Shown here piece by piece: positions 1,937 to 50,785 of a stretch of 64,000 nt of DNA. Each line of letters begins with the position of its first letter. The stretch's first letter is position 1. Source of the stretch: Candidatus Omnitrophota bacterium (GTDB taxonomy: Bacteria > Omnitrophota > Omnitrophia > Omnitrophales > Aquincolibacteriaceae); assembly GCA_043808175.1 (NCBI GenBank), contig JAZDFE010000002.1, forward strand, positions 4,906 to 68,905. Reading direction: 5' to 3'. The position numbers were made by a program, and so were the translations under genes. Under the pieces are notes generated by a model. It made no database searches. It saw nothing but the letters and a program-made list of their open reading frames with translations, and was not told the DNA's origin.

Positions 1937-4900
1937 TTAGTTTTCTTTCCGGGACGAGCCGGCGCGAGTAAGCTCGAATTTATCGAGCACCTTTTCCTGG
2001 AAAGCTTGCATATAGAGAAAAAGCCCTGGCGTTACAAAGAGCGTTACCACCTGAGAAAAGACGAGCCCGCCGACCACGACCAGCCCGAGGGGGACCCTGG
2101 AAGAACCGTCCGCGCCATATCCGAGCGCGATCGGCAAAGCGCCCATGATCGCCGCGAGTCCCGTCATGAGGATCGGCCGGAAGCGCACAACGCTCGCGTC
2201 GTGGATCGCGTCAAAGTTGTTCTTCCCTTCGGCAAGGCCCTGATTGGCAAAGTCCACCATCATGATACCGTTCTTGGCCACAATGCCAAGCAGCATAAAG
2301 ATCCCGACATAAGCATAAAGGGACATCTCGGAGTGGAAGATCCAAAGCGTGGCAAGGCCGCCGAGCGTCCCGACCGGAAGCGTTGTGATGATCGTGAATG
2401 GATGCACATAACTTTCATAGAGAATACCGAGGATCACATATTTAATAAGAATCGCGATTAGGATCAGGAGGGTAAGACTCGCGATAGCGTCCGAAAATTC
2501 CTCCGCTTCGCCCTGCAGTTTCCCGGTAACCTCGGCCGGAAGAAGTTTCTCAGCCGTTTGTTCGATAAATTTCGTCGCATCTCCGAGAGGGACCCCCTCC
2601 TTGAGGTTGAACGAGATCGTCCCGGAATTCAGCTGCGAGTCATGCGGCACATTTTGCGGGGTCACCACTTCGGTCCATTCTAAGACAGAGCTTAGGGGCA
2701 CCATCTTTCCCGTGGCGCTTGCCCGGACATAGACGCGGGAAAGATCTTCCGGAACTTTCTGGTACTCCTTTTCGAGTTCTACGATCACCTGGTATTGATC
2801 GATCTGGGTTTTATAAAGCGTCACTTTGCCTTGGGCATAAGCCAGCGACAAGGCGTATTCGATATCCTGCGCCGTGATCCCTAAGGTCGACGCCCGGTCC
2901 CTTAAGATCGTGGCCTTCAAGGTCGGCAAGGTCAGTTTGACGCTGTTCTGAACGTCCACAAATCCGGGATGTGCCCGAAGCTCTTTTTCAAGCTGCATCG
3001 CGCTCTCATAAACTTTCCCCTGGTCTGCGCCGCGGATCGTGTAGGAATATTTGCTCCCCGAAGCGGTGCTTTCGCCGCCGGTGCTGATCTGAAGGGAGGG
3101 CGTTGCTTTAAGGAACGCGAATCCTCCGGCGATCTTTGCCAGCTTGCCGCGGATCTCCGCCAGGGCCTTGGCCATCGGGAGGCGCTTCCCGGAAGGCTTG
3201 AGCACAATATGGATGAACCCGGTGCTCTGGTCGGAGCCGGTCTGAAGTCCGGAAGCGGTCAGCGTCCGTTCAATATTGGGGTCCGCTTCAAGCACATGGT
3301 TCACTTGGGCTTGGTACTGGCGAGCCTGTTTTGTCGAGGTCCCGAGAGGCATCAATGTACCCCCCATGATCGCGCCGCTGTCGCCGTCCGGAAGAAATGT
3401 TTGAGGCAGCACATTGAAAAAGTATACGGTCCCGCCCAGACAAGCCACCCACAGAACGATCGTAATGAATGGCCGCAGCAGGATCTTTTTGAGAAGAATG
3501 CTGTATCCTCCGATCACTTTGTCCATGAACGGATTCATGATCCTCTGGACCCAGTTCTCTTTTTCTTTTCCCTCCTCCTTGGCCTTCAACATGCGCGCGC
3601 ACATCATCGGCGTGAGCGTAAGCGACACCACACCGGAACAAAGGATCGTCACGACCACCGTGATCGCAAATTCCCTGAAGATCCTTCCGACAACACCCCC
3701 CATGAATACCAGTGGAATAAAAATGACCGCTAAGGAAAGCGTCATGGAAAGGATCGTAAAACTGATTTCTTGAGCGCTCTTGATCGCGGCCGGAAACGGT
3801 TTCATGCCTTGTTCGATCAGACGCACCGTGTTTTCAAGCACCACGATCCCGTCATCCACGACGAACCCGACCGCAAGAATGATTCCCATAAGCGACAGGT
3901 TGTCCAAACTGAAATGGAGGGCCTTCATGACAAGGAACGAGGCAATGATGGAAACCGGCAACGTCATCGCGGGAATAACCGTGTCTGATAAACGCCCGAG
4001 GAAAAGAAAAATGACAAGAATGACCAGCACGAGCGCGATCAGGATTGTGTTCTTCACATCGTCGATGGACGCGATGATCGATTCGGATTTGTCGTAGTAA
4101 ACGGACAACTGGACCGAACCCGGGATCTCACGCTTCAGCTCTTCAACCGTTTGTTTGATCCGCTCGGCAAGACCCACCGTATTCGATCCCACCTGACGGA
4201 AAACAGGAAGCACGGCCACGCCGGCATGCAGCTTCTCGCCCGGCCGCGTCGTCGCCATCACATTCACAACGTCACTTTCGGTGCTGTTCACGCAAGTCGC
4301 GATATCCCGCAGCCGGATAGGAGCGCCGTTCCGGTAGGCCACGATCAGTGACTCATACTCCTTGGCGTCGATCATCTGCCCTTGAGGCTGGATCGAAAAA
4401 GTCCGCGCGTTTCCGTTCAAACTCCCTCCGGGGACCGTCACTGTTCCCGTTTGAACAGCCGCGGCAATATCATTCAACCCGATCCCATAGGCGGCCAGCT
4501 TGGCGGGATCCACCTGGACACGGATCGCGGATTGTGATCCGTAGACCTGAACCTGCGAAACGCCTTCGATCATGGAGATCCGCTGGCCGATCGTCCGGTT
4601 CGCATAATCATAAAGCTGGCCGGGGGTCAGACTGTCAGAAGTCACCATCAGATACATGATCGGTGTGTCGGAGGGGTTCGTTTTTGTATAAGTGGGCGGC
4701 GCCGGAAGATCTGTCGGCAGATTCGCCTGCGCGCGCGAAATAGCGGCCTGTACGTCCGGCGCCGCGAGGTCAATACTCCGGTCCAGATCAAACGTGAGCA
4801 TGATCTGAGTTTGACTGTCCGTGTTGGTGGAAATGATCGATTTGAGCCCCGGGATCTGCATGAACTGGCTTTCAAGGGGCGATGCCACCGTCGAGGCCAT

Positions 4901-5088: not shown

Positions 5089-5143
5089 GAACCACGCTCC
5101 ACGATCCATGCACCACGTGGCCCGTGGCACGTGGAACGTGGAA
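5089..5143. repeat. GC-rich heptad palindrome (CCACG/CGTGG family)
   Basis: gaaCCACGctCCACGatCCATGcaCCACGTGGccCGTGGcaCGTGGaaCGTGGaa, centred on CACGTG. Lies between the MFP stop and the RND start. Confidence 0.85.
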
Positions 5144-14890: not shown

Positions 14891-15004
14891 AGGCTGTCCA
14901 TTCGTAGGACGCCATGATTTTCATTAATCAAAAAACGGATAGGGAATCATGACTGTACTAGTTTCTTCATGGTTTCTTTTAATGAATGACAAACCAGTAT
15001 GCCT
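14891..15004. repeat. hairpin-module array (AT-loop family)
   Basis: CGTAGGACGCC leader. Modules CCATGATT..(ttcattaatc)..AATCATGactgtac and GGTTT..(cttttaatgaatgac)..AAACCagtatgcc. Confidence 0.75.
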
Positions 15005-15012: not shown

Positions 15013-16284
15013 TTATGGATTGATGGTTGAATTAGCGGATTGGATCGCTTTATAAAGCTTTTGGGCCAGATCTTTGTTTAAATTATTTAATATCGTGTAT
15101 TGTTGCAACGCAGAATCCGTCTCATGAAAAGATAGATGCGACATCCCAAGACCGTAATAGGCCATGGAATTCCGGGCATCCAAGGAGATGGCCTTATTGA
15201 AAGACTCGATCGCTTTTTTGACTTTGCCTTGCTGAAAATAGCTGTTACCCAAACCGACGTAAGCATTAGATTCCTTGGCGTTCAAGGAGATCGCCTTGTT
15301 ATAAAACTCGATCGCTTTTTCGGTATTGCCCTTCTGCACATCGATATTACCCAAACCGACGTAAGCACCGGCACACTTGGCGTCCACGGAGACGGCTTTC
15401 GTGAAAGACTCGATCGCTTTTTCGACCTTGCCCTTCTGAAAATAGATATGCCCTAAACCGACGCTAGCATTGGGATCCTTGGTGCCCAACGAGACGGCCT
15501 TGTTATAAAACTCGATCGCTTTATCGATATTGTTTTGCTGGAAATAGAGGTGGCCCAAACCGACGTAAGCATTAGGCTCCCTGGCGTCCACGGAAATGGC
15601 TTTATTGAAAGATTCGATCGCTTTTCCGGTATTGCCTTGCTGGAAATAGAGCTGACCTAAACCGACGTAAGCACTGGGCTCCTTGGCGTTCAAGGAGATG
15701 GCCTTATTGAAAGACTGAATCGCTCCGTCGATATTGCCTTTCTGGAAATAGAGATGACCCAAACCGACATAAGCGCCGGACTCCTTGGCACCCAAGGAGA
15801 TGGCCTTGTTATAAAACTCGATCGCTTTTTCGGCGTTGTCCTTCCGGGAATAGATGAAAGCCAACCCGACGTAGGCCCCGGAGCATTTGGCGTCCAAGAA
15901 GATGGCCTTATTGAATGATTCGACCGCTTTATCGTCATCGCCTTTCCGGGAATAGACATGACCCAAACCGACGTAAGCGCCGGAACTCTCGGCGTTCAGG
16001 GAAATGGCCTTATTGAAAGACTCGATCGCTTTATCGTCATCGCCTTTCTGAAAATAGAGATTCCCCAAACCGACGTAAGCATTGGAATCCTTGGCATCCA
16101 AAGAGATGGCCTTATTGAAAGACTCGATCGCTTTATTCATGTCGCCCTTTCTCACCGCTTCATTGCCGGCCCTAATAGACTCGCCCGCGTTTGCAGCGTA
16201 ACCGCTCGGATTACCGCAAATAAAAAATGCTGCTTGGGCAAAAAATATCAGGCTTACTAATCCGGAAAAGGAATGTTTTTTCAT
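15013..16284 (-). CDS. secreted TPR-repeat protein (ten near-identical 34-aa units)
   Basis: Trimmed to the ATG at 16284 (MKKHSFSGLVSLIFFAQAAFF signal-like). The unit AIESFNKAISLDAK.SNAYVGLG.LYFQKG...K is reiterated ten times, a 102-bp DNA period. Confidence 0.85.
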   Translation of the reverse strand: MKKHSFSGLVSLIFFAQAAFFICGNPSGYAANAGESIRAGNEAVRKGDMNKAIESFNKAISLDAKDSNAYVGLGNLYFQKGDDDKAIESFNKAISLNAESSGAYVGLGHVYSRKGDDDKAVESFNKAIFLDAKCSGAYVGLAFIYSRKDNAEKAIEFYNKAISLGAKESGAYVGLGHLYFQKGNIDGAIQSFNKAISLNAKEPSAYVGLGQLYFQQGNTGKAIESFNKAISVDAREPNAYVGLGHLYFQQNNIDKAIEFYNKAVSLGTKDPNASVGLGHIYFQKGKVEKAIESFTKAVSVDAKCAGAYVGLGNIDVQKGNTEKAIEFYNKAISLNAKESNAYVGLGNSYFQQGKVKKAIESFNKAISLDARNSMAYYGLGMSHLSFHETDSALQQYTILNNLNKDLAQKLYKAIQSANSTINP

Positions 16285-16524
16285 TTTTGATCCCTCGCAT
16301 AAGTGGTTTGTTGCCAAAGGGAAATCACCGGGTGGCTCTTCCCCGATCCGGGGACGATTTTTTGGAGATAGTATTAAATTCTTTCTTTGCTTCCGCAAGC
16401 ATTTTCTCCCGGCTCATTCTGACCTGCTCCACGGAACGGTGCCGGCACGTTCGAGAGAGTGGCGGGTGATCTTCGGACCCATGATGGGGGCGTTACGCGG
16501 AGGATCCGTTCCAAGTGGATCTTA

Positions 16525-18127: not shown

Positions 18128-18268
18128 CCGTAGGGCGCCATGATTTTCATTAATCGAAAAATAAGGGGTAACCAGGGCAGTCCAAGTCACCCTTTATGAA
18201 AAGAAGATCAAGACTTGGGCTGTACTAGTTTCTTTATTGTTGCTTTTATTAAACGATCAATCGGTACG
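18128..18268. repeat. hairpin-module array (AT-loop family)
   Basis: CGTAGGGCGCCATGATTttcattaatc...; CAAGTC..GACTTGggctgtac; ...tcggtacgc junctions. Confidence 0.7.
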
Positions 18269-20785: not shown

Positions 20786-20849
20786 CCGTCCCGAGTCCCG
20801 GCGGTTCGTGGCTCGTGGCCCGTGTCCCGATGCCGTACACGTCACACCC
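20786..20849. repeat. GC-rich heptad repeat block (CGTGG/CGTGTCC units)
   Basis: gtcccgagtcccggcggttCGTGGctCGTGGccCGTGTCCcgatgccgtacacgtcacaccc. Positions 20805-20946 are 141/142 identical to 23776-23917. Confidence 0.85.
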
Positions 20850-20850: not shown

Positions 20851-21110
20851 AGAAATGACGCCTGATTCTCCTATTAAGTTTTATAAAGAATCAGTGCAGC
20901 ACCGACTTTCAATTAACTGCTCTTATCGACAGTCGGTACGGCATCGCCTGGTTTCATTTAAGAGATGATTGAGAACCAGTGCTGTCCTGGCCTCCGATTA
21001 ATTTTTCAATAATAGCCAGGGCGTACTTGCACACAGGTACAAGTGCCGAGATGCTTGATATCGTTCTGAGCTCGTCTTTTTTGCTAGGCTGTCCGTAGGA
21101 CGCCTATTTT
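20851..21110. repeat. hairpin-module array (AT-loop family), five or more modules
   Basis: CTGATTCT..AGAATCAGtgcagc; ACCGACT..AGTCGGTacggc; CTGGTT..AACCAGtgctgtc; CTGGC..GCCAGggcgtac; ACTTGCACacagGTACAAGT; ends ...ggctgtccgtaggacgcc. Confidence 0.8.
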
Positions 21111-21392: not shown

Positions 21393-21657
21393 CGGCGTAC
21401 TGGTTTATCATTTATTTAAAAAATAATAATGAAACTAGTACTGTCATGATTACCGTCCAAACTTTTCATTTCTTTTTCAAAACGGTAGTCGGCACTGATT
21501 TTCATTTAATTTTTAGATTGGAAATCAGTACAGTCCCAACCAACCCTTAAATGAATCGGAGGGTTGGGGCTGGACGGCCCCAATCTCAGCTATGCTTCGA
21601 TTGATAGGTATTGGGACCGTTTATTTTTTGATTGATGAAAATCATGGCGTACCGACC
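21393..21657. repeat. hairpin-module array (AT-loop family), modules in both orientations
   Basis: CTGGTTT..AAACTAGtactgtc; CTGATTTtcatttaat..AAATCAGtacagtc; CCCAACC..GGTTGGGgctggac; GGCCCCAAT..ATTGGGACC; inverted copy of the CCATGATTTTCAT module. Confidence 0.8.
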
Positions 21658-21707
21658 GGAAGAGAATGAGGATCAGGGAATGAAACGATTATTTCTGACG
21701 CTTACTC

Positions 21708-21771
21708 GAGCCACGAGCCAAGCACCACGCACCACGAAGCTCGTGTCCCGTGGTTCGTGGCACGTGTCCCC
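21708..21771. repeat. GC-rich heptad palindrome
   Basis: gagCCACGagCCAAGcaCCACGcaCCACG-aagct-CGTGTCCCGTGGttCGTGGcaCGTGTCC, directly after the histidine-kinase stop. Confidence 0.85.
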
Positions 21772-21774: not shown

Positions 21775-22890
21775 CTATTTCCTGGGCAGCGTAAAAATAA
21801 ATTTGCTGCCCTTTCCCGGCTCGCTTTCGACCCAGATCCTGCCCTGATGAAGCTCGACAATGTCCTTGACGATGGGAAGTCCAAGACCGGTCCCTTCCTG
21901 TTTTTCGGCGGTCAGACGCTCGAATTTGTCGAACAACTTGCCAAAATCCTCCTTGGCGATCCCCGGCCCCGAATCGGAGATCTCGAAACGGACCTCTTCT
22001 TCAGTTCCGGAAAGGCGGAGGATGATCTTGCCGCCGGAAGGAGTGTATTTGACGGCGTTGCTGAGCAAATTGATGAGGACCTCGGTCAGCTTGTCACGGT
22101 CCGCCAGGACCTCGCCCGCGCTCTCTGAAAAATCTTTTTCGAGGAGAAGGTTCTTTTTCGAGATCTCATTGGCATCGCCGGCAAGGACCTCCTCGGCCAG
22201 GGCGGCGATCCCGAAACTTTCTTTTTTCAACTTCATCTTTCCCGCTTCGATCTTTGAAAGATCGAGAAGATCCGTGACCAGCCGGATAAGCCTTTCCGTA
22301 TTTTTGAGGGCGATCGTAAGCACCTCCCGCTGTTCCTCGCTCACCGCGCCGGCCGAACCGTCCAAGACATAGTCCAGCGAAAGCTGCATGTTGCTCAAGG
22401 GATTTTTGAATTCATGGGAGACATTGGCGACAAAAGCCGACTTCCGCTCGTCCATCTGTTTCAAAAGCTCCTCGGCCTCTTTGATCTTGCTGATATCATT
22501 CCCGACGCAGAGGATCTCCTTGGTCTCGCCCTTCGCGTCGGACAAGGCCTTATTGGTCCAGGCGATCCACACCCGCTCCCCGCTGCGAAGCATGTTCTCA
22601 TTTTCGTTATTCACATACTTCTCGGGATAGCGCACGATATCATCAACCATGGCCTTCTGGTCCCTGCCCGCGCTGTCCGTCACCGGCGCGATCGTCCCGA
22701 TGGCGCTTTTACCCAAGATCTCCTTCTCCTCAAATCCGAAGAACTCCTGCGCGAACTTATTGAGGAAGGTGATCCTGCCCTGGGTATCCATGCGCAGGAT
22801 GATGCTGTTGGCGTCCTGGACCAGCCTGCGATAAGAGTCCTCGCTTTGTCCGAGCGTCTTACCGGCTTTCATGCTGCTCATGCCTCCCAT
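21775..22890 (-). CDS. PAS-domain sensor histidine kinase
   Basis: PAS region (YRRLVQDANSIILRMD...). HisKA H-box VSHEFKNPLS. HATPase N/G boxes (NLLSNAVKYTP, DSGPGI, GTGLGLPIV). Confidence 0.9.
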   Translation of the reverse strand: MGGMSSMKAGKTLGQSEDSYRRLVQDANSIILRMDTQGRITFLNKFAQEFFGFEEKEILGKSAIGTIAPVTDSAGRDQKAMVDDIVRYPEKYVNNENENMLRSGERVWIAWTNKALSDAKGETKEILCVGNDISKIKEAEELLKQMDERKSAFVANVSHEFKNPLSNMQLSLDYVLDGSAGAVSEEQREVLTIALKNTERLIRLVTDLLDLSKIEAGKMKLKKESFGIAALAEEVLAGDANEISKKNLLLEKDFSESAGEVLADRDKLTEVLINLLSNAVKYTPSGGKIILRLSGTEEEVRFEISDSGPGIAKEDFGKLFDKFERLTAEKQEGTGLGLPIVKDIVELHQGRIWVESEPGKGSKFIFTLPRK

Positions 22891-23727: not shown

Positions 23728-23820
23728 CCCCGTGTCCCTTGTCCCTGGAGTTATCGTGTCCCGTGTCCCCGGAATTTCGTGGCTCGTGGCCCGTGTCCCG
23801 ATGCCGTACACGTCACACCC
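23728..23820. repeat. GC-rich heptad repeat block
   Basis: CGTGTCCcttgtccctggagttatCGTGTCCCGTGTCCccggaatttCGTGGctCGTGGccCGTGTCC... Its right part is shared with 20805-20849. Confidence 0.85.
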
Positions 23821-23829: not shown

Positions 23830-24106
23830 CGCCTGATTCTCCTATTAAGTTTTATAAAGAATCAGTGCAGCACCGACTTTCAATTAACTGCTCTTATCGA
23901 CAGTCGGTACGGCATCGTACTTGTTCACCGGCGCAAGTGCGGTCAGAGTACGAAGCTGATATTATGCTCCGACTCTGCCGTCCCAATACTTATCAATTTC
24001 TGCAAAGCAGAAATTGGGGCGGTCTTGGTTACCGTTGATCAAAAGAAAATTAAAACCAGGGCCGTACTTGTACACAGGTACAAGTGCCTACGGTACCGGT
24101 ACCGAT
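23830..24106. repeat. hairpin-module array (AT-loop family)
   Basis: The first two modules are identical to 20862-20942. Then come ACTTG..CAAGT, CAGAGT..ACTCTGccgtc, CCCAATACTTATCAATTTCTGC..GCAGAAATTGGGG, TGGTT..AACCAgggccgtac, ACTTGTACacagGTACAAGT and GGTACCGGTACC. Confidence 0.8.
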
Positions 24107-24847: not shown

Positions 24848-24903
24848 ACGTGTCCCGAGTCCCGTGTCCCCGGAATTTCGTGTCCCGTGTCCCCGTGTCC
24901 CCT
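24848..24903. repeat. GC-rich heptad repeat block
   Basis: aCGTGTCCCGAGTCCCGTGTCCccggaatttCGTGTCCCGTGTCCCCGTGTCCcc. Confidence 0.8.
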
Positions 24904-25564: not shown

Positions 25565-25660
25565 TTTTCCCTCCTTTTTCTTCGGTTTGAAACGACTCAT
25601 AGTCGGTTGAGAAAAAACACGGAAAAGACAAGTCCGGCCGTGTCCCGACGGTTCGTGGCT

Positions 25661-25775
25661 CGTGGCACGTGTCCCCGGAATTATTGTGTCCCGTGGTACG
25701 TGTCCCCGGAATTATTGTGTCCCGTGGCACGTGTCCCCGGAATTATTGTGTCCCATGGCTCGTGGCACGTGTCCC
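25661..25775. repeat. 3.5 tandem copies of a 31-nt unit (GC-rich heptad family variant)
   Basis: CGTGGCACGTGTCCCCGGAATTATTGTGTCC at 25661, 25692 (one substitution) and 25723, then a partial copy. The copies are contiguous with no spacers. Confidence 0.9.
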
Positions 25776-27339: not shown

Positions 27340-27372
27340 CGAGTCCCGAGTCCCGAGTCCCGTGTCCCCTGT
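27340..27372. repeat. heptamer tandem CGAGTCC x3 + CGTGTCC
   Basis: CGAGTCCCGAGTCCCGAGTCCCGTGTCCcctg, immediately 3' of the metallopeptidase gene. The same junction occurs at 31872-31892. Confidence 0.85.
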
Positions 27373-29236: not shown

Positions 29237-29497
29237 GGGAAGTATACAACCAGATAGTTGTTTTTGCAAGGGATGTTCATGAACAGGATATTATGACTAA
29301 ATTAAGCTTAAGTCAATTTTATTTTGCTTTTAAATCATTTTGTAAAAAAACTACCCCTTTCGGACTTGATGACATGGTGACTTGATAGTAAGGCTAGCTT
29401 TAGGCTATGAGCTATCGGGTACGTGCTACGCTCTAAGCGTAGCGGCAGGGAGAGCTAGGATCGAAGTAGGTCCGGAGAGGCGGTGTCCCGGAATAAC

Positions 29498-29644
29498 GAA
29501 AAAGCCGCGCTTAAATGGCGCGGCTTTGTGGAGATAGATCTCCCGGCGCTTTAGCACATTTCCCGTCCCGCAGGACGGTGCTCGCCCACATGGGGTCAAG
29601 CTTTAGCGGAGCAAGTAACCTCTTTAAATCACCGCTTCTTCTAT
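29498..29644 (-). ncRNA. candidate ~150-nt sRNA, copy 1
   Basis: Conserved promoter (29651-29679), several hairpins (CCGTCC-tgcg-GGACGG; GGAGA-tcta-TCTCC; a 10-bp helix with a G-U that is valid only on the minus strand) and the intrinsic terminator GCCGCGC-catttaa-GCGCGGC-TTTTT. About 95 percent identical to 31563-31709. Confidence 0.5.
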
Positions 29645-29650
29645 ATAAGA

Positions 29651-29679
29651 ACTGTAGCTGACCTATCGCGTTTTGACAA
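29651..29679 (-). promoter_or_regulatory. sigma70-like promoter of sRNA candidate copy 1
   Basis: The minus strand reads TTGTCA-17 nt-TACAGT. Both hexamers are conserved in copy 2 while the 17-nt spacer sequence differs. Confidence 0.5.
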
Positions 29680-29715
29680 GAAAGCGAGACCTAGCAAGAA
29701 CTAACAGGAGCCGGG

Positions 29716-29775
29716 GTCATTCATTTCCAACCATTCTTCAATGAACCCGGCACTTAGGGTACCGGCACCGATCCA
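29716..29775. repeat. hairpin module (AT-loop family)
   Basis: CCGGGGTCattcatttccaaccattcttcaatGAACCCGG followed by GGTACCGGCACC. Related module at 30447-30488. Confidence 0.6.
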
Positions 29776-30446: not shown

Positions 30447-30732
30447 GGCCGGGATCATTCATTTTCATCCATGCTTTAATGGACCCGGCTCGATACCGCA
30501 CGCACTGAACGACCCATAAAGCTTAAATGAAGTTTAGTGCTGTCCCAATCAACCCTTAAAATTAATGGGAGGATTGGGACGCGACCTACCTTAAAAAGCG
30601 GCGGTATCGCCTGGTTTCATTTAAGAGATGATTGAGAACCAGTGCTGTCCTGGCCTCCGATTAATTTTCCAATGATAGCCAGGGCGTACTTGTACACAGG
30701 CACAAGTGCTTGGGGTACCGGTACCGGTCCGG
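30447..30732. repeat. hairpin-module array (AT-loop family)
   Basis: CCGGGATC..GGACCCGG; CACTGAAC..GTTTAGTGctgtc (G-T pair valid on the + strand reading); CCCAATC..GATTGGGacgcgac. After that, 30606-30709 is about 95 percent identical to 20943-21046. Ends with GGTACCGGTACCGG. Confidence 0.8.
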
Positions 30733-30733
30733 T

Positions 30734-31472: not shown

Positions 31473-31562
31473 GAAAGGAGCTTTTAAAAGGTGTGGCTTA
31501 ATGGGAAGGGCTTAATGATCGGGGAAAAAAACGGAAACGGGACAACGCACAGTTTGTAAAAC

Positions 31563-31709
31563 GAAAAAGCCGCGCGATTGAGCGCGGCTTTTCTGGAGAT
31601 AGATCTCCCGGCGCTTTAGCACATTTCCCGTCCCGCAGGACGGTGCTCGCCCACATGGGGTCGGGCTTTAGCGGAGCAAGTAACCTCTTTAAATCACCGC
31701 TTCTTCTAT
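31563..31709 (-). ncRNA. candidate ~150-nt sRNA, copy 2
   Basis: Same hairpins and terminator (GCCGCGC-tcaatc-GCGCGGC-TTTTT) as copy 1. The promoter is at 31716-31744. Confidence 0.5.
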
Positions 31710-31715
31710 AAAAGA

Positions 31716-31744
31716 ACTGTAGCCGGCCTTTTACGTTTTGACAA
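31716..31744 (-). promoter_or_regulatory. sigma70-like promoter of sRNA candidate copy 2
   Basis: The minus strand reads TTGTCA-17 nt-TACAGT, with a spacer sequence different from copy 1. Confidence 0.5.
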
Positions 31745-31847
31745 GAAAGCGAGACCTAGCAAGAACTAACAGGAGCCGAGGTCAACTCCCCCAGCGCCGC
31801 GAAAACCTCGATTTTCCCGATCTTGATTTTAATCTTCATTTTCTTTC

Positions 31848-31892
31848 GCTCCACGCTCCACGTTCCACGAATCCCGAGTCCCGTGTCCCCTG
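31848..31892. repeat. GC-rich heptad repeat block
   Basis: gctCCACGctCCACGttCCACGaatcCCGAGTCCCGTGTCCcctg. Confidence 0.8.
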
Positions 31893-34980: not shown

Positions 34981-35096
34981 ACGTCCTACGAATGAACACC
35001 CTGGCTTTTAATTATTCCACCATCCGTACGGCACTTGTACCGATGCACAAGTACGGCAGGGTCACTTTTCAAGGTTAATCGTGTACCCTGACCGCG
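34981..35096. repeat. hairpin-module array (AT-loop family, partly inverted orientation)
   Basis: ACGTCCTACGAATG is the reverse complement of the CATTCGTAGGACG leader. CACTTGTACcgatGCACAAGTA; GGGTCA..TGTACCCtgaccgcg. Confidence 0.65.
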
Positions 35097-36265: not shown

Positions 36266-36490
36266 ATGTTAGAACGGAACGATGAATTGATCGAGCAATT
36301 TAACAAGGAAGAGCAGAAGCGTCAGAGGCTTCAACGCCGCAAGCGTGCGCGCCGGAAACGGGCACCCTCTGCGAGTAAAGAATTTCATAAGCTGTTCGAC
36401 CGTCTTGACGCCTGGCTTTCTTATAAAATTAAATTGGAAGCCAGTGCTGTACTTGCCAACCTTTATTATTTAATAGAGGCAAGTACGTAG
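36266..36490 (+). CDS. hypothetical small basic protein
   Basis: 74-aa ORF with an Arg/Lys-rich centre (QRRKRARRKRAP). No motif, and coding status is uncertain. Confidence 0.3.
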   Translation: MLERNDELIEQFNKEEQKRQRLQRRKRARRKRAPSASKEFHKLFDRLDAWLSYKIKLEASAVLANLYYLIEAST

Positions 36491-41645: not shown

Positions 41646-41833
41646 CCGGTCCCAATACTTATCAATTTCCACAGAGTGGAAATTGGGGCCGTCCTTGTCG
41701 ACCATTTGGGAAAAGAATGAAAGACAAGGGCGGAGGCGCGAGTGAGTTTTTCCACGCCGGGGAAAAACGAACGGTGCCGAAGGATCCGCAAGAAATTCCA
41801 CATTTTGTTCACTTGGAATCAGGGAATTGGGGG
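41646..41833. repeat. hairpin-module array abutting the uvrB stop codon
   Basis: GGTCCCAATACTTATCAATTTCCACagaGTGGAAATTGGGGCCGTCC; CTTGTC..GACAAGggcggag; further imperfect modules. Confidence 0.7.
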
Positions 41834-43936
41834 CTAGCGTTTTTTGCGGGGGATCCGGACGGATCTTTTGGGCGTGCCCTTTTGGGGCGCGCCTTCCCCT
41901 TCGATCCGGCGGATCTCGTCGCGATAACGGGCGGCCTTGTCGAACTCCAGCGCCCGCGCGCAAGCTTCCATCCGGGTCTTGAGGAACGCGAGATAGTTCT
42001 TGGTCTCGTATGCTTTTCCGGATTCATGGACCACGTCATGGACGAACTCTTCGGCCTTTTTCCATTGTTCGATCCCGTCCTTGATCTCTTTCTGGATCGA
42101 GACCGGGGTGATCTTGTGCGCCGTATTGTAGTCCGCCTGGATCTTACGGCGGCGCGCGGTCTCATCGATCGCCCGCTTCATGGAATCCGTGACTTTGTCC
42201 CCGTACATGAGGACCCTGCCGTTGACGTGACGTGCCGCCCGGCCCGCGGTCTGGATGAGCGAAACGTCGCTCCGGAGGAAACCTTCCTTGTCCGCGTCGA
42301 GCACGACCACGAGCGACACTTCCGGGAGGTCCAGACCTTCGCGCAAAAGGTTCACGCCGATCACGCAGTCGTATTTCTTGAGACGGAAATCGCGGAGGAT
42401 CTCCACCCTCTCGAACGCGTCGAACTCCGAGTGAATGTAATGCGCCTTGATCCCGAGCTCCTTCAGGTACCGGCTGAGATCTTCGGCCATCTTTTTGGTC
42501 AGCGTCGTGACGATCGTCCGTTCCCCTTTCTTCTCCCGCGCCTTCACCTCGCCGATCAGATCGTCGATCTGTCCTTCGGTCTTCCGGACCTCGATCTGGG
42601 GGTCCATCAACCCCGTCGGGCGGATGACCTGCTCCGTCACTTCTTTCACGCGGCCCATCTCGTAAGGCCCCGGCGTCGCGGAGACATAAAGACACTGCTT
42701 CAACTTGGCCTCGAATTCCGGCCATCGGAGCGGCCGGTTATCCAGCGCGGAAGGCAGGCGGAACCCGTGGTCGACCAGGACCTTTTTCCGTGAAGCATCG
42801 CCGTTGAACATGCCGCGGATCTGCGGCACGCTTTGGTGCGACTCGTCGATGATGACGAGAAAATCCTTCGGGAAATAATCCATGAGCGTGTAAGGTGTGG
42901 AGCCGGGAGCGCGTCCGGAAAGATGACGGGAGTAATTCTCGACGCCGGAGCAATAGCCGACCTCCTTCAGCATCTCAAGGTCATATTGCGTACGCGACTC
43001 CAGGCGCTTGGCCTCAAGGTCCTTGCCTTCGGAAGCGAGTTTCTTGACGTGTTCTTTCATTTCTTGCTCGATCGATACGATCGCGGCCTCGAGCCTTTCG
43101 CCCGGGGTCACGAAATGTTTCGCGGGATAGATCGCGAGTTTTTCGACCTCCCGGAGTGCGGTCAATTTCACGGGGTCGAGAAGCGCGATCCGTTCGATCG
43201 CCTCGGGACCGCCCAAACTTTTCATTTCTTTTCCAGAGTGGTAGTTTGGACGGCCCCAATCTCCGCTTTGCTTCGATTGATCGATATTGGGACCGAAATC
43301 GATGCGGTAAGGATTCTGTCCGTACGACGGAAGGAGGTCGATCCTGCCGCCGCGTACGCGGAACGTTCCCCGCCGGAGCTCGGTCTCCTCCCTTTCATAT
43401 TGAAGGCTGATCAGGCTTGAGAGGAATTTGTCGCGGTCCGCGGCCTCGCCTTTGGCGATCGTGATGAGAAGTCCCTGCCAGTCCTCCGGCGCGCCGAGGC
43501 CGTAGATGCAGGAAACGCTTGAGACGATGATACAGTCCTTGCGCGAAAGGATGGAGCTGGTCGCGGAAAGACGCAGCCGGTCGAGGTCTTCGTTGATCGA
43601 GGCGTCTTTTTCGATGTAGGTGTCCGTGTGCGGGATGTACGCCTCCGGCTGGTAATAATCGTAATAGGACACGAAGTATTCGACGGCGTTCTCGGGGAAG
43701 AATTCCTTGAGCTCCGAATAAAGTTGCGCGGCGAGGGTCTTGTTGTGGGAGATCAAAAGCGTGGGGAGCCCGAGCCGGGCGATCACGTGCGCCATGGTGA
43801 ACGTCTTTCCCGAGCCCGTCACCCCCCGAAGGACCTGTTCCTTTTCCCCGGCCAGGAAACCCTCTACCAGCTTTTCGATCGCCTGCGGCTGATCGCCCTT
43901 CGGCTTCATGGAGGAAACCAATCTGAACCCGCTCAT
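41834..43936 (-). CDS. uvrB: excinuclease ABC subunit B
   Basis: 700 aa. Walker A GVTGSGKT, helicase motifs (DESH, ...), C-terminal UVR motif LEFDKAARYRDEI. It carries a 28-aa repeat-derived insertion. Confidence 0.95.
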   Translation of the reverse strand: MSGFRLVSSMKPKGDQPQAIEKLVEGFLAGEKEQVLRGVTGSGKTFTMAHVIARLGLPTLLISHNKTLAAQLYSELKEFFPENAVEYFVSYYDYYQPEAYIPHTDTYIEKDASINEDLDRLRLSATSSILSRKDCIIVSSVSCIYGLGAPEDWQGLLITIAKGEAADRDKFLSSLISLQYEREETELRRGTFRVRGGRIDLLPSYGQNPYRIDFGPNIDQSKQSGDWGRPNYHSGKEMKSLGGPEAIERIALLDPVKLTALREVEKLAIYPAKHFVTPGERLEAAIVSIEQEMKEHVKKLASEGKDLEAKRLESRTQYDLEMLKEVGYCSGVENYSRHLSGRAPGSTPYTLMDYFPKDFLVIIDESHQSVPQIRGMFNGDASRKKVLVDHGFRLPSALDNRPLRWPEFEAKLKQCLYVSATPGPYEMGRVKEVTEQVIRPTGLMDPQIEVRKTEGQIDDLIGEVKAREKKGERTIVTTLTKKMAEDLSRYLKELGIKAHYIHSEFDAFERVEILRDFRLKKYDCVIGVNLLREGLDLPEVSLVVVLDADKEGFLRSDVSLIQTAGRAARHVNGRVLMYGDKVTDSMKRAIDETARRRKIQADYNTAHKITPVSIQKEIKDGIEQWKKAEEFVHDVVHESGKAYETKNYLAFLKTRMEACARALEFDKAARYRDEIRRIEGEGAPQKGTPKRSVRIPRKKR
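43211..43296. repeat. two hairpin modules inserted in frame inside uvrB
   Basis: CCAAACTtttcatttcttttccagagtggtAGTTTGGacggc + CCCAATctccgctttgcttcgattgatcgatATTGGGaccg. Both have close relatives at 21456-21495 and 21580-21625. Confidence 0.8.
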
Positions 43937-43992
43937 CCGTCTATTCCTTTAAGACTGCCGGCCGTTTTTCACCTGCCCGCACTTGTGCGCCC

Positions 43993-44949
43993 TCACAAGT
44001 GGGATCCCCTTTCGGCGGCATCGCCGAAACGGGACGGAAAAGGCTCATACCAGTCAAGCAAGAGGGAGAAATCAACGGCTTTAACGGAATGGGTCAGGGC
44101 ACCGACGGAAATGGTATCGACGCCCGTTGCGGCAAACTTACGGACGTTCGCGAGCGTGATACCTCCCGAGGCTTCGATCATGACGCCAGGGGCTTCCTTG
44201 TGAATGATCCCCACGGCCCTCCGGGTTTCCTTGGGCGAAAAATTATCCAGAAGGATCACCTTGGGCTTGAGCGCGATCGATTGGCGGAGCTCCTTGAGGT
44301 CGCGGACCTCGATCTCGAAATCACGCAGGTGTCGTTTCAGTTTCGAAAGATCGCCGTAAAGCCGGTGGTTTTCCTTCACGAAAATATACGCATCCAGGCC
44401 GGGGCGGTGTCTCCGACCCCCGCCGACCTCAACGGCCACCTTTTCCAGTTCGCGCCAAAGCGGCGCGGTCTTGCGCGTGTGGAGAAGAAGGACCGGATAT
44501 TCTTTTATTTTTTCCACGAACTGGCGCGTTTTGGTCGAGATCCCGGAAAGATGGCTGATAAAATTGAGCAGGGTCCTCTCCACCTTCAGGATCGACCGGA
44601 TATTCCCGCGCATTTTGAAAACGATCTTCCCGGGCCGGAGCTTCCCTCCGTTATGGACCCAGAATTCGAGCTTCACTTTCGGATCCACGATCTTGAAGAT
44701 CTCTCTTACGAGCCGCTCGCCGCAAAAGATCCCGCGGTCCTTGGCGATCACACGGGCTTCGCCCTTGGTTTGGGCCGGGATCAGAAGATTTGAGGTGATA
44801 TCTCCGTGTCCGATATCCTCCCTCAGGGCTTCCTTGATGAAATTCAGGGTCCGCTGGGAGACATGGAGCGGATGGCCGTGGATGCCGTGCCTTTTGCTAA
44901 AGACCGGCGAGCTGGGTTTTGTAGGATACAAGAAGACTTTTCGCATCAT
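43993..44949 (-). CDS. nadC: nicotinate-nucleotide diphosphorylase (carboxylating)
   Basis: ALREDIGHGDITS, ERTLLNF, HTRKT, VKENH, IEASGGI. The start is set at the first in-frame ATG (44949), which overlaps the valS 3' end by ~50 nt. The start is uncertain. Confidence 0.85.
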   Translation of the reverse strand: MMRKVFLYPTKPSSPVFSKRHGIHGHPLHVSQRTLNFIKEALREDIGHGDITSNLLIPAQTKGEARVIAKDRGIFCGERLVREIFKIVDPKVKLEFWVHNGGKLRPGKIVFKMRGNIRSILKVERTLLNFISHLSGISTKTRQFVEKIKEYPVLLLHTRKTAPLWRELEKVAVEVGGGRRHRPGLDAYIFVKENHRLYGDLSKLKRHLRDFEIEVRDLKELRQSIALKPKVILLDNFSPKETRRAVGIIHKEAPGVMIEASGGITLANVRKFAATGVDTISVGALTHSVKAVDFSLLLDWYEPFPSRFGDAAERGSHL

Positions 44950-47707
44950 TGAGTTTCTCTTTTTCTTTTTCAAGGATCTCTTTTGGCGCTTTTTCGGCAA
45001 AAGAAGGGTTCTCAACTTTTTTACGGATGTTCTCTATCCATTGTTCGGTTTCTTGGATCCTTTTCTGGAGCCGTTTTTTCTCTTCTTCCGGGTCCAGGAT
45101 CCCCTCGAGCGAGATAAAAATATCAAAAGCCGCAAAGGAGTTCGCCGCCATCGTGCCTTTTTTCTGGAAGGTACGCACACATTGAAGCTCCGCGAGCCGG
45201 CCCAGTGTCTTCACCTCGCGTTCAAAGGCTTTAAAGATCTCCTGCGTCCCCTGCTCTTTACAAACAAGGGCGGCCTTGAGTTTCTCCGTCGGCGCGATCC
45301 GGGACCGGACCCTGAGATCGCGGATACCGCCCACGGCGTCCTGCAAAAGACCGATCGCCTCCTGCGCTTCCGCGTCGTGGAACTTCTTTTTCCCGTCATG
45401 CGGCCAACCGGCGAACATGAGGGTCTCGGGCCAGGTATTGGCGTCGGCCGCTTTTTGTTTGAACGTCTGCCAGATCTCTTCGGTGATGAACGGCATGAAA
45501 GGATGCAGGAGCCTCAGGATCTTTTCTGTCACATAAAAAAGAACTTTTTGCGTCTGAAGTTTTAAAGCGGCGTCGGCGGATTGGGTCATGGGTTTTGCGA
45601 GCTCGATATACCAGTCGCAGAAATCATCCCACACGAAGTGATAAAGCTCGATCGCCGCCTGGGCGAGGCCGAACTGGGAAAGGTGCTTTTCGATCGCAGC
45701 GGCTTTTTCCTCAAGACGCGACAGGATCCAGCGGCTGGGAAGCGAGAGTGCTTCCTTTTTGAACTGTCCGGGGTCCGTCGAAGCGGTTTCGAGGCCCCCG
45801 AGTTGCATCAGCACGAACCGGCAGGCGTTCCAGACCTTGTTCGCGAAATTACGGCCGACTTCGAATTTTTCGCGCGAAAGATAAACATCCTGCGCCGAAA
45901 GCATCACGAGACTGTAGCGCAGGGCGTCGGCCCCCATCTCTTCGATCACCTCAAGCGGGTCGATGGAGTTCCCGAGCGATTTCGACATCTTGAGCCCGGT
46001 GGCTACGCGGACCGTGCCGTGAATATTAATTTGGGTGAACGGGACTTCGCCCATGAATTCAAGGCCCGCCATGATCATGCGCGCCACCCAGAAGAAAATG
46101 ATCTCCGGAGCGGTCACGAGGTCCGAGGTCGGGTAGAATTTTTTCAGGTCTTCGGTCTTGGCCGGCCAGCCCAGGGTCGAGAACGGCCACAGCCAGCTGG
46201 AAAACCAGGTGTCTAAAACATCAGGATCTTGTTGAAGTTCGGTGTTCCCGCAAGAGGGACATTTTGACGGCTTTTCGCGAGCGACAATGATCCCTTCCGA
46301 GCCACGAGCCACGGGACACGGCCCATCGGATTTTTCGTGGTTCGTGGCACGTGGTGCTTGGCCCTGCGCGCAGCGCGCGCAATACCACGCCGGGATCTGA
46401 TGCCCCCACCAGATCTGCCGCGAGATACACCAGTCACGGATGCCGCCGAGCCAGTTAAGATAAACCTTGGTCCAGCGGTCCGGATAGAAAACCGTTTTTC
46501 CCTGCTCATGCGCCTTGAGGGCCTTCGCGGCCAGCGGCTGCATTTTGACGAACCATTGTTTGGAAAGGTACGGTTCGACCACGGTATCGCACCGGTAGCA
46601 ATGTCCGACCGCGTGCAGATGCGAATCGCGTTTAATGAAAAGACCGCGCGCCTCGAGATCATGAATGATCTTCTTACGCGCGTCGAACCGGTCCATCCCC
46701 TTGTAAACACCACCGCGTTCGTTGATCTTGCCGTCCGGCGTCATGACATTGATCTGCTCGAGATTATGGCGGTACCCCATCGCGAAGTCGTTGGGGTCAT
46801 GCGCCGGCGTGACTTTCACGATGCCGGTCCCGAATTCAGGGTCCACAAATTCATCCGCGATCACCGGGATCTCGCGGTCCATGAGCGGCAGGATGACCTT
46901 CTTGCCGATCAAGCGTTTGTAACGCGGATCGCCCGGATGGACCGCGACGGCCGTATCACCCAACATCGTTTCGGGACGCGTCGTCGCGACCACGATATGG
47001 TCTTCGCCCATCTTTTCATGGGGACCGCTCTTCCCCGCGATCGGATATTTGATGTGATAAAGCCCGCCCTGCACGTCCTTGTGGGCGGCTTCTTCGTCCG
47101 AAAGCGCGGTCTGGCAGCGCGGGCACCAGTTGATGATATAGTTGCCGCGATAGATCAGCCCCCGTTCATAGAGCGTGACGAACGCCTCGCGTACCGCCTT
47201 GGAAAGCCCTTCGTCCATGGTGAACCGTTCGCGGGTCCAGTCGCAGGAAGCCCCGAGGCGGCGGAGCTGGCGCGTGATGGTCGACCCGTGTTCGTTCTTC
47301 CATTTCCAGACTTCTTTTAAGAAAGCCTCGCGGCCGACGTCCCACCGGGTTTTCTTTTCCTTGGCGAGTTTCTTCTCCACCACATTCTGCGTCGCGATCC
47401 CCGCGTGGTCTACGCCCGGCACCCAAAGCGTATCCCGGCCTTTCATGCGGTTCCAACGGACGAGGACATCCTGGATGGAATTATTGAGCGCGTGGCCCAT
47501 GTGCAGGATGCCCGTGACATTGGGAGGAGGAATGACAATGACGTAAGGGCCCACGGGACACGGGCCATGGGCCACGTCTTTTTCCGTGGAGCGTGGGGCG
47601 TGGGACGTGGCCCGGTCACTTTGCGGGCGGAAATAACCCTTCGACTCCCAGAGGGAATACCACTTGGTTTCGACCTGCCTAGAATGATATTGTTTGTCTA
47701 GTTCCAT
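44897..47707 (-). CDS. valS: valine--tRNA ligase
   Basis: Trimmed to the ATG at 47707 (MELDKQYH...). HIGH region PPPNVTGILHMGHA, KMSKS LKMSKSLGN, CP1 editing domain, C-terminal coiled coil. It contains two repeat-derived in-frame insertions. Confidence 0.95.
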   Translation of the reverse strand: MELDKQYHSRQVETKWYSLWESKGYFRPQSDRATSHAPRSTEKDVAHGPCPVGPYVIVIPPPNVTGILHMGHALNNSIQDVLVRWNRMKGRDTLWVPGVDHAGIATQNVVEKKLAKEKKTRWDVGREAFLKEVWKWKNEHGSTITRQLRRLGASCDWTRERFTMDEGLSKAVREAFVTLYERGLIYRGNYIINWCPRCQTALSDEEAAHKDVQGGLYHIKYPIAGKSGPHEKMGEDHIVVATTRPETMLGDTAVAVHPGDPRYKRLIGKKVILPLMDREIPVIADEFVDPEFGTGIVKVTPAHDPNDFAMGYRHNLEQINVMTPDGKINERGGVYKGMDRFDARKKIIHDLEARGLFIKRDSHLHAVGHCYRCDTVVEPYLSKQWFVKMQPLAAKALKAHEQGKTVFYPDRWTKVYLNWLGGIRDWCISRQIWWGHQIPAWYCARCAQGQAPRATNHEKSDGPCPVARGSEGIIVAREKPSKCPSCGNTELQQDPDVLDTWFSSWLWPFSTLGWPAKTEDLKKFYPTSDLVTAPEIIFFWVARMIMAGLEFMGEVPFTQINIHGTVRVATGLKMSKSLGNSIDPLEVIEEMGADALRYSLVMLSAQDVYLSREKFEVGRNFANKVWNACRFVLMQLGGLETASTDPGQFKKEALSLPSRWILSRLEEKAAAIEKHLSQFGLAQAAIELYHFVWDDFCDWYIELAKPMTQSADAALKLQTQKVLFYVTEKILRLLHPFMPFITEEIWQTFKQKAADANTWPETLMFAGWPHDGKKKFHDAEAQEAIGLLQDAVGGIRDLRVRSRIAPTEKLKAALVCKEQGTQEIFKAFEREVKTLGRLAELQCVRTFQKKGTMAANSFAAFDIFISLEGILDPEEEKKRLQKRIQETEQWIENIRKKVENPSFAEKAPKEILEKEKEKLNDAKSLLVSYKTQLAGL
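46299..46366. repeat. GC-rich heptad palindrome inside valS (internal)
   Basis: gaGCCACGaGCCACGgGACACGgcccatcgg-attttt-CGTGGttCGTGGcaCGTGGtgCTTGGccctg. It encodes ...APRATNHEKSDGPCPVARGS... between the CARC and CPSC zinc knuckles. Confidence 0.8.
47547..47615. repeat. GC-rich heptad palindrome inside valS (N-terminal)
   Basis: gggcCCACGgGACACGggCCATGggCCACG-tcttttt-cCGTGGagCGTGGggCGTGGgaCGTGGcccgg. It encodes ...RATSHAPRSTEKDVAHGPCPVGP... just before the HIGH motif. Confidence 0.8.
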
Positions 47708-47716
47708 AAATTCAAA

Positions 47717-47782
47717 GAGCCACGGCCCACGCACCACGAGCTACGATTTTCGTGGCCCCTGGCCCGTGGAACGTGGCCCCGG
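47717..47782. repeat. GC-rich heptad palindrome (cimA/valS junction)
   Basis: gaGCCACGgcCCACGcaCCACGagCTACG-atttt-CGTGGccCCTGGccCGTGGaaCGTGGcccc. Confidence 0.88.
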
Positions 47783-47784
47783 TT

Positions 47785-49353: not shown

Positions 49354-49370
49354 AAGTTTAAACTTTCAAA

Positions 49371-49447: not shown

Positions 49448-49449
49448 TA

Positions 49450-50780: not shown

Positions 50781-50785
50781 AGCTC

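Follow-up and report, generated by a model that had tools for sequence, protein, structure and literature searches.

Among the repeats of bacterial genomes, the repetitive extragenic palindromic (REP) sequences and their composites, the bacterial interspersed mosaic elements (BIMEs) and the REP doublets forming hairpins (REPINs), are short, imperfect and mostly extragenic palindromes that reach high copy number, form mosaic arrays and often lie in 3' untranslated regions (3'UTRs). An imperfection in the stem separates their two strands, and their movement in trans, in the form of single-stranded hairpins, is attributed to REP-associated tyrosine transposases (RAYTs); the RAYT of Escherichia coli no longer binds a REP that lacks the stem mismatch (PMC3479197). 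According to the available part of a survey of GTAG- and CGTC-tagged REPs, which counts eight phyla, Omnitrophota not being among those named there, REPs also occur within uvrA, uvrB and other repair genes of other phyla, often as dimers encoding 20-30 aa, and some intragenic REPs were equated by Di Nocera et al. with the Rickettsia palindromic elements (RPEs) (PMC3733652). RPEs are selfish palindromes that sit in frame in protein-coding genes, where they specify tolerated peptide segments, and also occur between genes. The present work concerns a family of hairpin modules in a stretch of 64,000 nt from Candidatus Omnitrophota bacterium (assembly GCA_043808175.1, contig JAZDFE010000002.1, positions 4,906 to 68,905), hereafter the window. 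Omnitrophota is a widespread and almost uncultured phylum, and to our knowledge nothing has been reported on its repeat content.

The window contains 42 modules (1,557 nt, ~2.4% of the 64 kb) in 13 clusters, located mainly in intergenic regions, with in-frame copies tolerated in coding sequence. Copy number, restriction to a lineage, empty sites, flanking repeats, nesting, exchange of modules, stems that are symmetric at the DNA level and orientation together lead to the reading that the arrays are probably lineage-specific, small, non-autonomous mobile DNA palindromes, functionally similar to REPs and RPEs, as judged from sequence comparison. As far as could be found in Rfam, among plasmids and phages and in the literature, this abundant Omnitrophota repeat family has no prior description.

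Architecture of the hairpin modules

A sequence-only reading of the window had reported intergenic arrays of head-to-tail hairpins whose stems change while remaining paired. The locus described there holds five modules, within a few nt of the positions given before, and a mini-hairpin. An inverted-repeat finder recovered the stems, and the segment 20855-21050, folded as single-stranded DNA, gave z = -3.8 (+ strand) and -4.4 (- strand) against dinucleotide shuffles. All other loci listed in that reading hold modules as well, both orientations occur as it had stated, and three clusters can be added to its list (35031-35093, 36410-36486 and 43211-43293).

Each module reads 5'-G-Y-M-C, 4-7 variable base pairs, an AT-rich loop, the complementary arm and G-K-R-C-3'. 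A census covering the window and ~0.9 Mb of related contigs collected 312 hairpins with a GYMC/GKRC base and an AT-rich loop, the modal module length being 41 nt. Neighbouring modules are typically separated by a spacer of 1 nt (0-2 nt between adjacent stems), which yields a 42-nt period, corresponding to 14 codons. Once the base tetranucleotides are counted, stems reach 8-12 bp; many modules measure 37-46 nt with loops of 17-25 nt, the exception being the short-loop E modules of 24 nt with a 4-nt ACAG loop. The conserved junction of 6-8 nt, (T/G)RC(A/T)GTMC, that had earlier been taken for a separate part of the module turns out to be composite, consisting of the 3' stem base G-K-R-C, the spacer and the 5' base G-Y-M-C of the next module. 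In the census, forward-oriented modules are flanked by ..GGGC-N and GTCC.. on either side. The motif GTRCNGTMC matches the window 10 times (2.9 expected) and the motif GYMHTGATTYTCATTDAW four times (0 expected). Tandem Repeats Finder misses the arrays because the divergence between copies is too great, and TTG 'starts' inside modules made an analysis of distances to start and stop codons too noisy to use.

The stem base is conserved as GTCC/GGGC, with the variants GTAC, GCAC, GCCC and ATCC, and its second base pair is usually a strand-specific T·G. The GTCC/GGGC base is present in 196 of the 312 census hairpins, and among 53 modules collected without regard to pairing, T·G accounts for 26 of the second base pairs, T-A for 18 and C-G for 9. 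Strand-specific G-T pairs, noticed in the sequence-only reading, are real, with the refinement that they concentrate at this one position, where T·G is coupled to loop orientation (58 A-rich versus 8 T-rich loops). Inner stems are diverse, with ~70 different ones among ~200 modules; their variants follow W-R-R-Y-Y and differ mainly by compensated transitions.

The loops had been described as conserved, which holds for a few classes and not for one common sequence: ACCATT..GGAAAAGAAAT.AAA, AACCCTTAAAATTAATGGGAG, the D class and the short ACAG loop can be distinguished. The D-class loop, GTCCCAAT-ACNNWTCAAT-(inner hairpin)-ATTGGGGC, holds a hairpin of its own. The commonest unit in relatives is a head-to-tail pair made of a conserved D hairpin and, behind it, a variable G hairpin; it measures 81 nt, or 84 nt when a 3-nt direct repeat is included. 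Two details of D may be recorded here. One subclass of the inner hairpin, CGAAGC-AAA-GCTGAG, retains tandem G·A/A·G mismatches (D modules L042-L161; in the window, for example, 21577-21617 and 43253-43293), and two CAAT copies in the D module compete for a single 3' ATTG, making two mutually exclusive folds possible.

Filled and empty sites, insertion in genes and probable mobility

Comparison of orthologous sites for presence or absence of modules revealed both filled and empty ones. Two modules in one contig (L141) face none in another (L130), the empty site reading TTT-TAG-TTC and the filled site TTT-TAG-(81 nt)-TAG-TTC. Likewise, a four-module array lying directly upstream of a start codon in L152 is absent in L082, and an orthologous site holds about six modules in L045 and two in L063. 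Between L112 and L159, the outer two modules of an array are common and the inner ones differ.

The D hairpin is followed directly on its 3' side by another hairpin of the same strand in 110 of 139 contexts, the remaining 29 having a decayed one, and a hairpin directly 5' of it was seen in only 26 of 139. Among 77 solitary units, the dinucleotide preceding D is the same as the final base of the G hairpin together with the base after it in 61 (permuted mean 15.5, maximum 27; 2000 permutations), and the base after this dinucleotide is G in 75. The direct repeat has the form Y-N-G, its dinucleotides being CG (22), TA (16), TG (9), CA (5), CC (5) and CT (4), and insertion of the 81-nt element adds 84 nt. 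Both variable bases of the repeat are tied to the element itself: Y pairs with the first base of the G hairpin, and N co-varies with the D-G spacer across the 77 units (G/C, A/A, T/T, C/G) in a relation that is neither plain identity nor plain complementarity.

Insertion has also reached coding sequence. Of the covariance-model matches within the window, the best (56 bits) falls in uvrB (41834-43936, -), where a D+G unit contributes 28 codons in frame (..YRIDF[GPNIDQSKQSGDWGRPNYHSGKEMKSLG]GPEAIERI..). The filled sites of the window and of L163 read TTCG, then GTCCCAAT..GGGC-G, then GTCCCGAG, with CGG as the direct repeat, and L162, where the site is empty, has TTC-GGG-CCC-GAG; the second module of L163 has the compensated stem AAGTC where the window has AAACT. 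UvrB orthologues P0123, P0125, P0171 and P0173 carry the insert, and P0122 (the closest, 96%), P0124, P0126, P0127 and others do not. The closest orthologues (94-96%) are those without it, and more distant ones (79-89%) have it at the same position, sometimes as a different module. In-frame units were also found in uvrA (L085, L052, L102) and in genes for malic enzyme (L119), a Nuo51-like protein (L099), a histidine kinase (L088) and a CYTH protein (L090). At least eight protein-coding genes contain copies in frame, always in one reading frame and in sense orientation, with added segments of 28-42 aa.

Insertion sites tend to mimic module ends, as in uvrA (GGGC-T-GTCC, L085) and the malic enzyme gene (GGGC-G, L119), and in one case a D+G pair is nested inside the loop of another module (L102). 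Within the window, a multi-module segment occurs at two loci, 20860-20939 being identical to 23831-23910, and 20946-20982 is identical to 30609-30645, with C and E types following at both loci in slightly different sequences. These identities indicate recent copying.

It might be asked whether the D+G unit is an ordinary miniature inverted-repeat transposable element (MITE), moved by a DDE transposase such as an IS5/Harbinger-like enzyme and flanked by a 3-bp target-site duplication. A small, non-coding, high-copy unit, surrounded in 61 of the 77 solitary cases by a 3-nt Y-N-G direct repeat and represented by two clean empty/filled pairs with a single TAG or CGG at the empty site, is what such an origin would predict. 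However, the termini share only a 3-6-nt inverted repeat (TCC../..GGA), each half of the unit is a palindrome of its own, and the repeat bases co-vary with bases of the element, which a duplication of random targets would not bring about. The mimicry of module ends at the uvrA (L085) and malic enzyme (L119) sites is equally foreign to this explanation, and no DDE transposase lies near the elements except for unrelated IS66 and rve fragments. The sequence-only reading had named clear homology to a known MITE with terminal inverted repeats (TIRs) and target-site duplications as something that would speak against its proposal, and this applies by half. Flanking direct repeats are present; real TIRs, a parent insertion sequence and homology to a known MITE were not found. 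An ordinary MITE is therefore judged unlikely.

A second, unrelated insert of ~105 nt with MITE-like features, built around a central palindrome CTGTAGGGCACATTTAAATGTGCCCTACGG, was observed in L159 at 1190-1300 and, inverted, at 4385-4500. It is absent from the orthologous L112, and one copy lies in the loop of a hairpin module.

Covariation, strand symmetry and orientation

The changing but paired stems of the sequence-only reading are borne out by covariation in two alignments. The seed alignment (A2) consisted of 54 ungapped 41-nt modules selected for pairing; it shows double-sided changes in 6 of 9 pairs and a covariation score of 0.661 versus 0.272 for shuffles (0/500 as high), and the score falls to 0.11 or less in slid registers. 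A covariance model built from the seeds yielded 23 matches from the window and 122 from 86 loci. In the alignment of these 122 matches, 97.4% of cells are paired and all 9 pairs show double changes (328 cells), a result reached by 0 of 500 shuffles. Because the seeds had been chosen for pairing, two tests independent of pairing were added. Among modules detected by stem base, loop motif and geometry alone, the inner stem is fully paired in 46 of 53. In the inner 6-bp hairpin of D, whose 15 nt were free in the search pattern, 542 of 672 cells are Watson-Crick (permuted mean 382, maximum 412), with 41 different arm sequences. The stem covariation is really genuine.

Its character is that of DNA. 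In the pairing-independent set, 255 of 265 inner-stem pairs are Watson-Crick, the exceptions including 2 G·T and 3 A·C; the inner stems are thus symmetric on both strands, as in a DNA palindrome; the near-absence of G·T argues against an RNA helix, which would tolerate G·U. Orientation is also uninformative with regard to transcription. Relative to both flanking genes, forward modules lie on the same strand in 49 cases and on the opposite strand in 45; 45 modules are found between divergent genes and 15 between convergent ones; and 80 lie on the G-rich and 77 on the C-rich strand. Module orientation is independent of transcription and of GC skew as a proxy for replication direction. The covariation of the modules does not point to a structured RNA.

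These data bear directly on the possibility that the modules are primarily functional RNA hairpins, acting as mRNA-stabilising or processing signals or as protein-binding sites like the CsrB/RsmZ sponges, with covariation arising from selection on RNA. Some features are well accommodated by it. The T·G at base pair 2 can pair on just one of the strands (196/312) and shows a coupling to loop orientation (58 vs 8). The loops form conserved classes, and start codons directly adjoin some arrays. The array 14896-15000 is bordered by the stop codon of a tetratricopeptide repeat (TPR) gene (15013) on one side and by a - strand GC-rich hairpin with a T-run (14868-14846) on the other, a terminator-like arrangement on which the present and the earlier reading of the sequence agree. 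Transcribed elements would nevertheless hardly be expected in random orientation to genes (49 vs 45) and three times more often between divergent than convergent genes (45 vs 15), and their inner stems would not lack G·U tolerance (2 G·T vs 3 A·C in 265 pairs). In-frame copies in at least eight protein-coding genes, direct repeats with matching empty sites and the absence of any Rfam match at E<=1 likewise speak against such a role. A primary structured-RNA role is not supported, and this explanation is considered quite improbable.

Array growth and a possible mechanism

If the arrays are mobile DNA palindromes, a putative trans-acting enzyme may recognise the folded single strand, with the T·G at base pair 2 marking the active strand in the manner of the stem mismatch in the REP/RAYT system. 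The unit would then integrate at a Y-N-G trinucleotide that matches its own end. All resident modules have ..GGRY-N-G at their end, which would make module edges a preferred target, and such a preference could account for head-to-tail arrays, 1-nt spacers and the 42-nt period. Stems would diverge by transitions that are quickly compensated, either because the hairpin is needed for mobility or through templated repair within the hairpin. Effects on transcripts, such as hairpins in 3'UTRs and 5' untranslated regions (5'UTRs) or peptide inserts, may be by-products or secondary exaptations. More tentatively, and with little confidence, the elements might be substrates of a structure-specific, sequence-guided recombination system in which the site is chosen by matching the element's own Y-N-G end, whose bases co-vary with those at the foot of the G hairpin, to the target. 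If so, targeting would be encoded in the DNA of the element and be reprogrammable in principle, and the 42-nt (14-codon) modularity would represent an adaptation to colonise coding sequence.

The arrays also invite comparison with integrons. They could be cargo-less cassette arrays whose hairpins act as attC-like sites recombined at the junction core. The conserved stem base and junction beside variable but compensated inner stems, the strand-marking imperfection at base pair 2, the swapping of inner modules between conserved outer ones (L112 vs L159; uvrB), integration at junction-like sequences and the overlap-like Y-N-G match of element and target would all fit. Yet the core is unlike attC R''/R' (RYYYAAC/GTTRRRY), modules have 41 nt where attC sites have 57-141 nt, neither an integrase nor an attI-like platform was seen in the window or the examined flanks, and hundreds of scattered sites, coding ones among them, carry copies, which are thus not gathered in one array. 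An integron-like origin thus seems improbable. Least credible, to the point of being nearly dismissed, are phased sites for a DNA-binding or nucleoid protein: the modal 41-nt module plus a 1-nt spacer would place the quasi-palindrome GGRC-N-GYCC, an imperfect inverted repeat formed by the junction, on the same helix face every 42 bp (four helical turns), but the phasing is not strict, as many modules measure 37-46 nt, and compensated stems, solitary units with direct repeats, nesting and coding copies are left unexplained. CRISPR-like arrays (no spacers), terminators (no T-tracts), integration host factor (IHF) sites (the D loop is unlike WATCAANNNNTTR) and sigma-54 promoters (no fit) were set aside.

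Distribution and searches for an enzyme

Matches to the D-module pattern are present in at least 120 metagenome contigs, showing that the family is not confined to the contig of the window. One of them, L123, is 88-92% identical to window positions 43989-53511. A scan of viral contigs with the same pattern gave 0 matches, and a metagenome scan with the A1 pattern gave none. In representative genomes, GCCATGATTTTCATYAATC returned 33 chance matches and one true relative, the Omnitrophota metagenome-assembled genome (MAG) GCA_043821445.1 (L016), which contains the six-module array of window 21397-21648 at 91% identity; its flanks are unrelated and its gene context is different, indicating a non-orthologous locus. 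Around the PAS histidine kinase gene (21775-22890, -), orthologous neighbourhoods at 88% and 85% protein identity hold modules with new stems, and a lineage at 83% identity has no modules in 20 kb.

Rfam searches of the window at gathering thresholds identified only one tRNA, and the arrays had no match even at E<=1. Plasmid and phage BLAST searches gave no match to the modules, and no described family that matches them was found in the literature. The earlier view that REP/BIME elements are the nearest analogy, with no matching described family, is in keeping with all of these searches.

Several points weigh against mobile palindromes as the explanation. A tblastn search of ~1 Mb of module-bearing loci with approximate IS608 TnpA and E. 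coli RAYT queries, at BLAST-level sensitivity, returned nothing below E=1; all-against-all clustering of open reading frames (ORFs) from ~1 Mb of many genomes revealed no gene family enriched beside arrays; and a Pfam scan of 19 window genes found no recombinase or integrase. To account for the patchy occurrence of the uvrB insert, one has to assume that a single site was hit repeatedly, that the insert was precisely lost, or that recombination took place. The T·G pair at base pair 2 and its coupling to loop orientation would also be compatible with RNA. Finally, the census beyond the window was driven by the D-module pattern and is biased toward D-bearing contigs, and taxonomy was verified for only a minority of its metagenome contigs. 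An autonomous parent of the form D, ORF, G was also sought, and none was found; all 29 partnerless D hairpins adjoin a decayed G.

Module map of the window and accompanying features

The positions of modules and of tandem heptamers are collected in Table 1. Genes around the described locus are ordinary, comprising a macro-domain protein, DUF2934, a histidine kinase, UPF0047 and an FMN reductase. The - strand carries most genes of the window, and GC skew is negative over the full length.

Table 1. Hairpin modules and heptamer sites in the window (positions in nt; modules listed in order of position)
Feature	Position	Strand	Remarks
Mini-hairpin GTCC-ATTCGTA-GGAC	14896-14910		array edge
A1 module GTCATGATT..AATCATGGC (- strand reading)	14911-14953	-	3'UTR of TPR gene
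B module GTACTAGTTT..AAACCAGTAT	14955-15000	-	
A1/hybrid module	18137-18178		
Canonical G module GTCCAAGTC..GACTTGGGC	18180-18220	+	R1, 55.7 bits
B module	18222-18267	-	
A2 module GCCTGATTCT..AGAATCAGTGC	20860-20897		identical copy 23831-23868
F module GCACCGACT..AGTCGGTAC; on - strand GTACCGACT..AGTCGGTGC	20899-20939	-	T·G at bp 2; identical copy 23870-23910
B2 module GCCTGGTT..AACCAGTGC	20946-20982		identical copy 30609-30645
C module GTCCTGGC..GCCAGGGC	20984-21022	+	T·G at bp 2
Short-loop E module GTACTTGCAC-ACAG-GTACAAGTGC	21023-21046	+	
Mini-hairpin GTCC-GTA-GGAC	21091-21101		
Six-module array	21397-21648		B 21397-21441, F2 21443-21493, A 21492-21531 (-), class-2 21533-21570 (+), D 21577-21617 (-), truncated A1 21618-21648
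Array	23831-24087	+	A2 23831-23868, F 23870-23910, E 23917-23940, H 23941-23979, D 23980-24020, G 24022-24062, E 24064-24087
Solitary module I CCGGGGTCATTCATT..AATGAACCCGG	29711-29750		
Array	30449-30709	+	I 30449-30488, F3 30502-30540, class-2 30542-30580, B2 30609-30645, C 30647-30685, E 30686-30709
Modules E and J	35031-35093		E 35031-35054, J 35055-35093
Modules C2 and E2	36410-36486	+	C2 36410-36447, E2 36449-36486
D+G two-hairpin unit	41649-41731	+	D 41649-41689, G 41691-41731; direct repeat CGG on flanks
D+G unit in frame inside uvrB	43211-43293	-	84 nt, 28 codons; direct repeat CGG(TCCC) on flanks
Module A and module C3 GTCCTGGCT..AGCCAGGGC	54416-54495	+	A 54416-54457, C3 54459-54495
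Heptamer sites	5114-5141, 20790-20829, 21707-21760, 23731-23795, 24849-24902, 25653-25764, 27340-27368		
Heptamer sites, continued	31847-31889, 46298-46362, 47551-47610, 49374-49412, 50758-50777, 54550-54590		

Tandem heptamers (CGTGTCC, CGAGTCC or CGTGGCC; on the - strand GGGACAC or GGGACTC) lie directly upstream of many - strand gene starts. They share the GTCC motif with the module stem base, are also present in the relative L063, and at 25661-25764 belong to a 31-nt unit repeated 3.4 times. They may represent a 5'UTR or promoter element, or kin of the hairpin family. Runs of the hexamer GGTACC (GGTACCGGTACCG) occur near gene 3' ends at 24088-24104, 29744-29770 and 30714-30733; each forms a small palindrome followed by a T-rich tail, and in several arrays the run stands directly 3' of the terminal short-loop E module.

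In addition, a non-coding sequence of ~230 nt is present in two copies (29495-29725 and 31560-31785), each downstream of a small gene and ending, on the - strand, in a strong terminator hairpin AAAGCCGCGC..GCGCGGCTTT with a T-run. It had no Rfam match at E<=10 beyond noise, and may be an undescribed small RNA or a 3'UTR element. Within the TPR gene (15013-16398, -), a unit of 102 nt (34 aa) is repeated 9.4 times in tandem at 15175-16136 with 76% matching, and the persistence of tandem copies at the DNA level indicates a fairly recent repeat expansion.

Implications

The modules reshape 5' and 3' untranslated regions and extend conserved proteins such as UvrA and UvrB, and they provide a very large natural set of compensated stem variants. 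Strong covariation can evidently arise in DNA palindromes without RNA function, which calls for caution in covariation-based discovery of non-coding RNAs. A two-hairpin head-to-tail unit with a co-varying Y-N-G repeat and apparent self-targeting could lead to a new enzyme that moves hairpin DNA. From a practical point of view, the elements are useful markers when strains are typed and when assembly problems of Omnitrophota MAGs are addressed.

Comparison with known systems

REPs, BIMEs and REPINs resemble the modules in the general properties outlined at the outset, including high copy number, mosaic arrays and a stem imperfection that separates the strands. They differ in construction. REPs have an unpaired 5' GTAG (or GGAG) tag, a central stem bulge, loops of 2-5 nt and a length of 20-40 nt, whereas the modules have no GTAG tag, pair their GTCC/GGGC tetranucleotide and measure 37-46 nt with loops of 17-25 nt, so that a REP-like appearance is confined to the E modules (24 nt, 4-nt loop). 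In BIMEs and REPINs the REPs alternate in inverted orientation, while the unit here is head to tail, with mixed orientations in larger arrays, and REP stems are far less diverse than those of the modules.

The CGTC-tagged REPs come closest in behaviour. As described in the available part of the survey, they occur as single or paired units inside genes, including uvrA and uvrB, and lack a dedicated transposase, as the modules appear to do; they have an unpaired terminal CGTC, stems of 8-9 bp with A/T at positions 1-2, loops of 4-5 nt and a CCA tail, and their dimers are head-to-head, head-to-tail ones being 'negligible' (PMC3733652). In the modules, C-GTC is found at 24 of 77 G-module starts but is paired, stems start with G-C, loops have ~23 nt and dimers are head-to-tail.

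RPEs share with the modules the selfish, palindromic character and the tolerated in-frame segments in proteins, along with intergenic copies. In-frame insertion is a shared behaviour and not evidence of homology. RPE-1, compared by description, is ~100-150 bp long, specific to Rickettsia and free of long head-to-tail arrays. We know of no description of a 3-nt Y-N-G direct repeat in RPEs.

Similarities extend to the ends of IS200/IS605 elements and to palindrome-associated transposable elements (PATEs), which have two subterminal hairpins and no TIR; here D occupies the 5' end and G the 3' end. Strand-specific imperfect palindromes and a target tied, in a guide-like manner, to nucleotides at the hairpin foot are further points of likeness. 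IS200/IS605 elements, however, insert without duplication on the 3' side of a fixed tetra- or pentanucleotide, in contrast to the variable Y-N-G found here on both sides. The attC sites of integrons, too, are defined by a folded single strand and have a conserved base, covarying inner stems and strand-marking imperfections; the core GYMC..GKRC, the size, the lack of cassette ORFs and, in the window and the examined flanks, of integrase and attI, and the genome-wide spread of copies set the modules apart. Neisserial intergenic mosaic elements (NIMEs) with their dRS3 repeats and Correia elements are likewise mosaic intergenic arrays of short modules bounded by conserved inverted repeats and affect the expression of neighbouring genes, but in the NIME modules of 50-150 bp the variable part is enclosed by 20-bp dRS3 repeats, and Correia MITEs have 26-bp TIRs with a TA duplication, both unlike the present family. 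Judged from these comparisons at the sequence level, the family departs from the defining features of REP/BIME, CGTC-REP, MITE, IS200/IS605 miniatures and attC, and yet it appears to work in the way that REP and RPE elements do.

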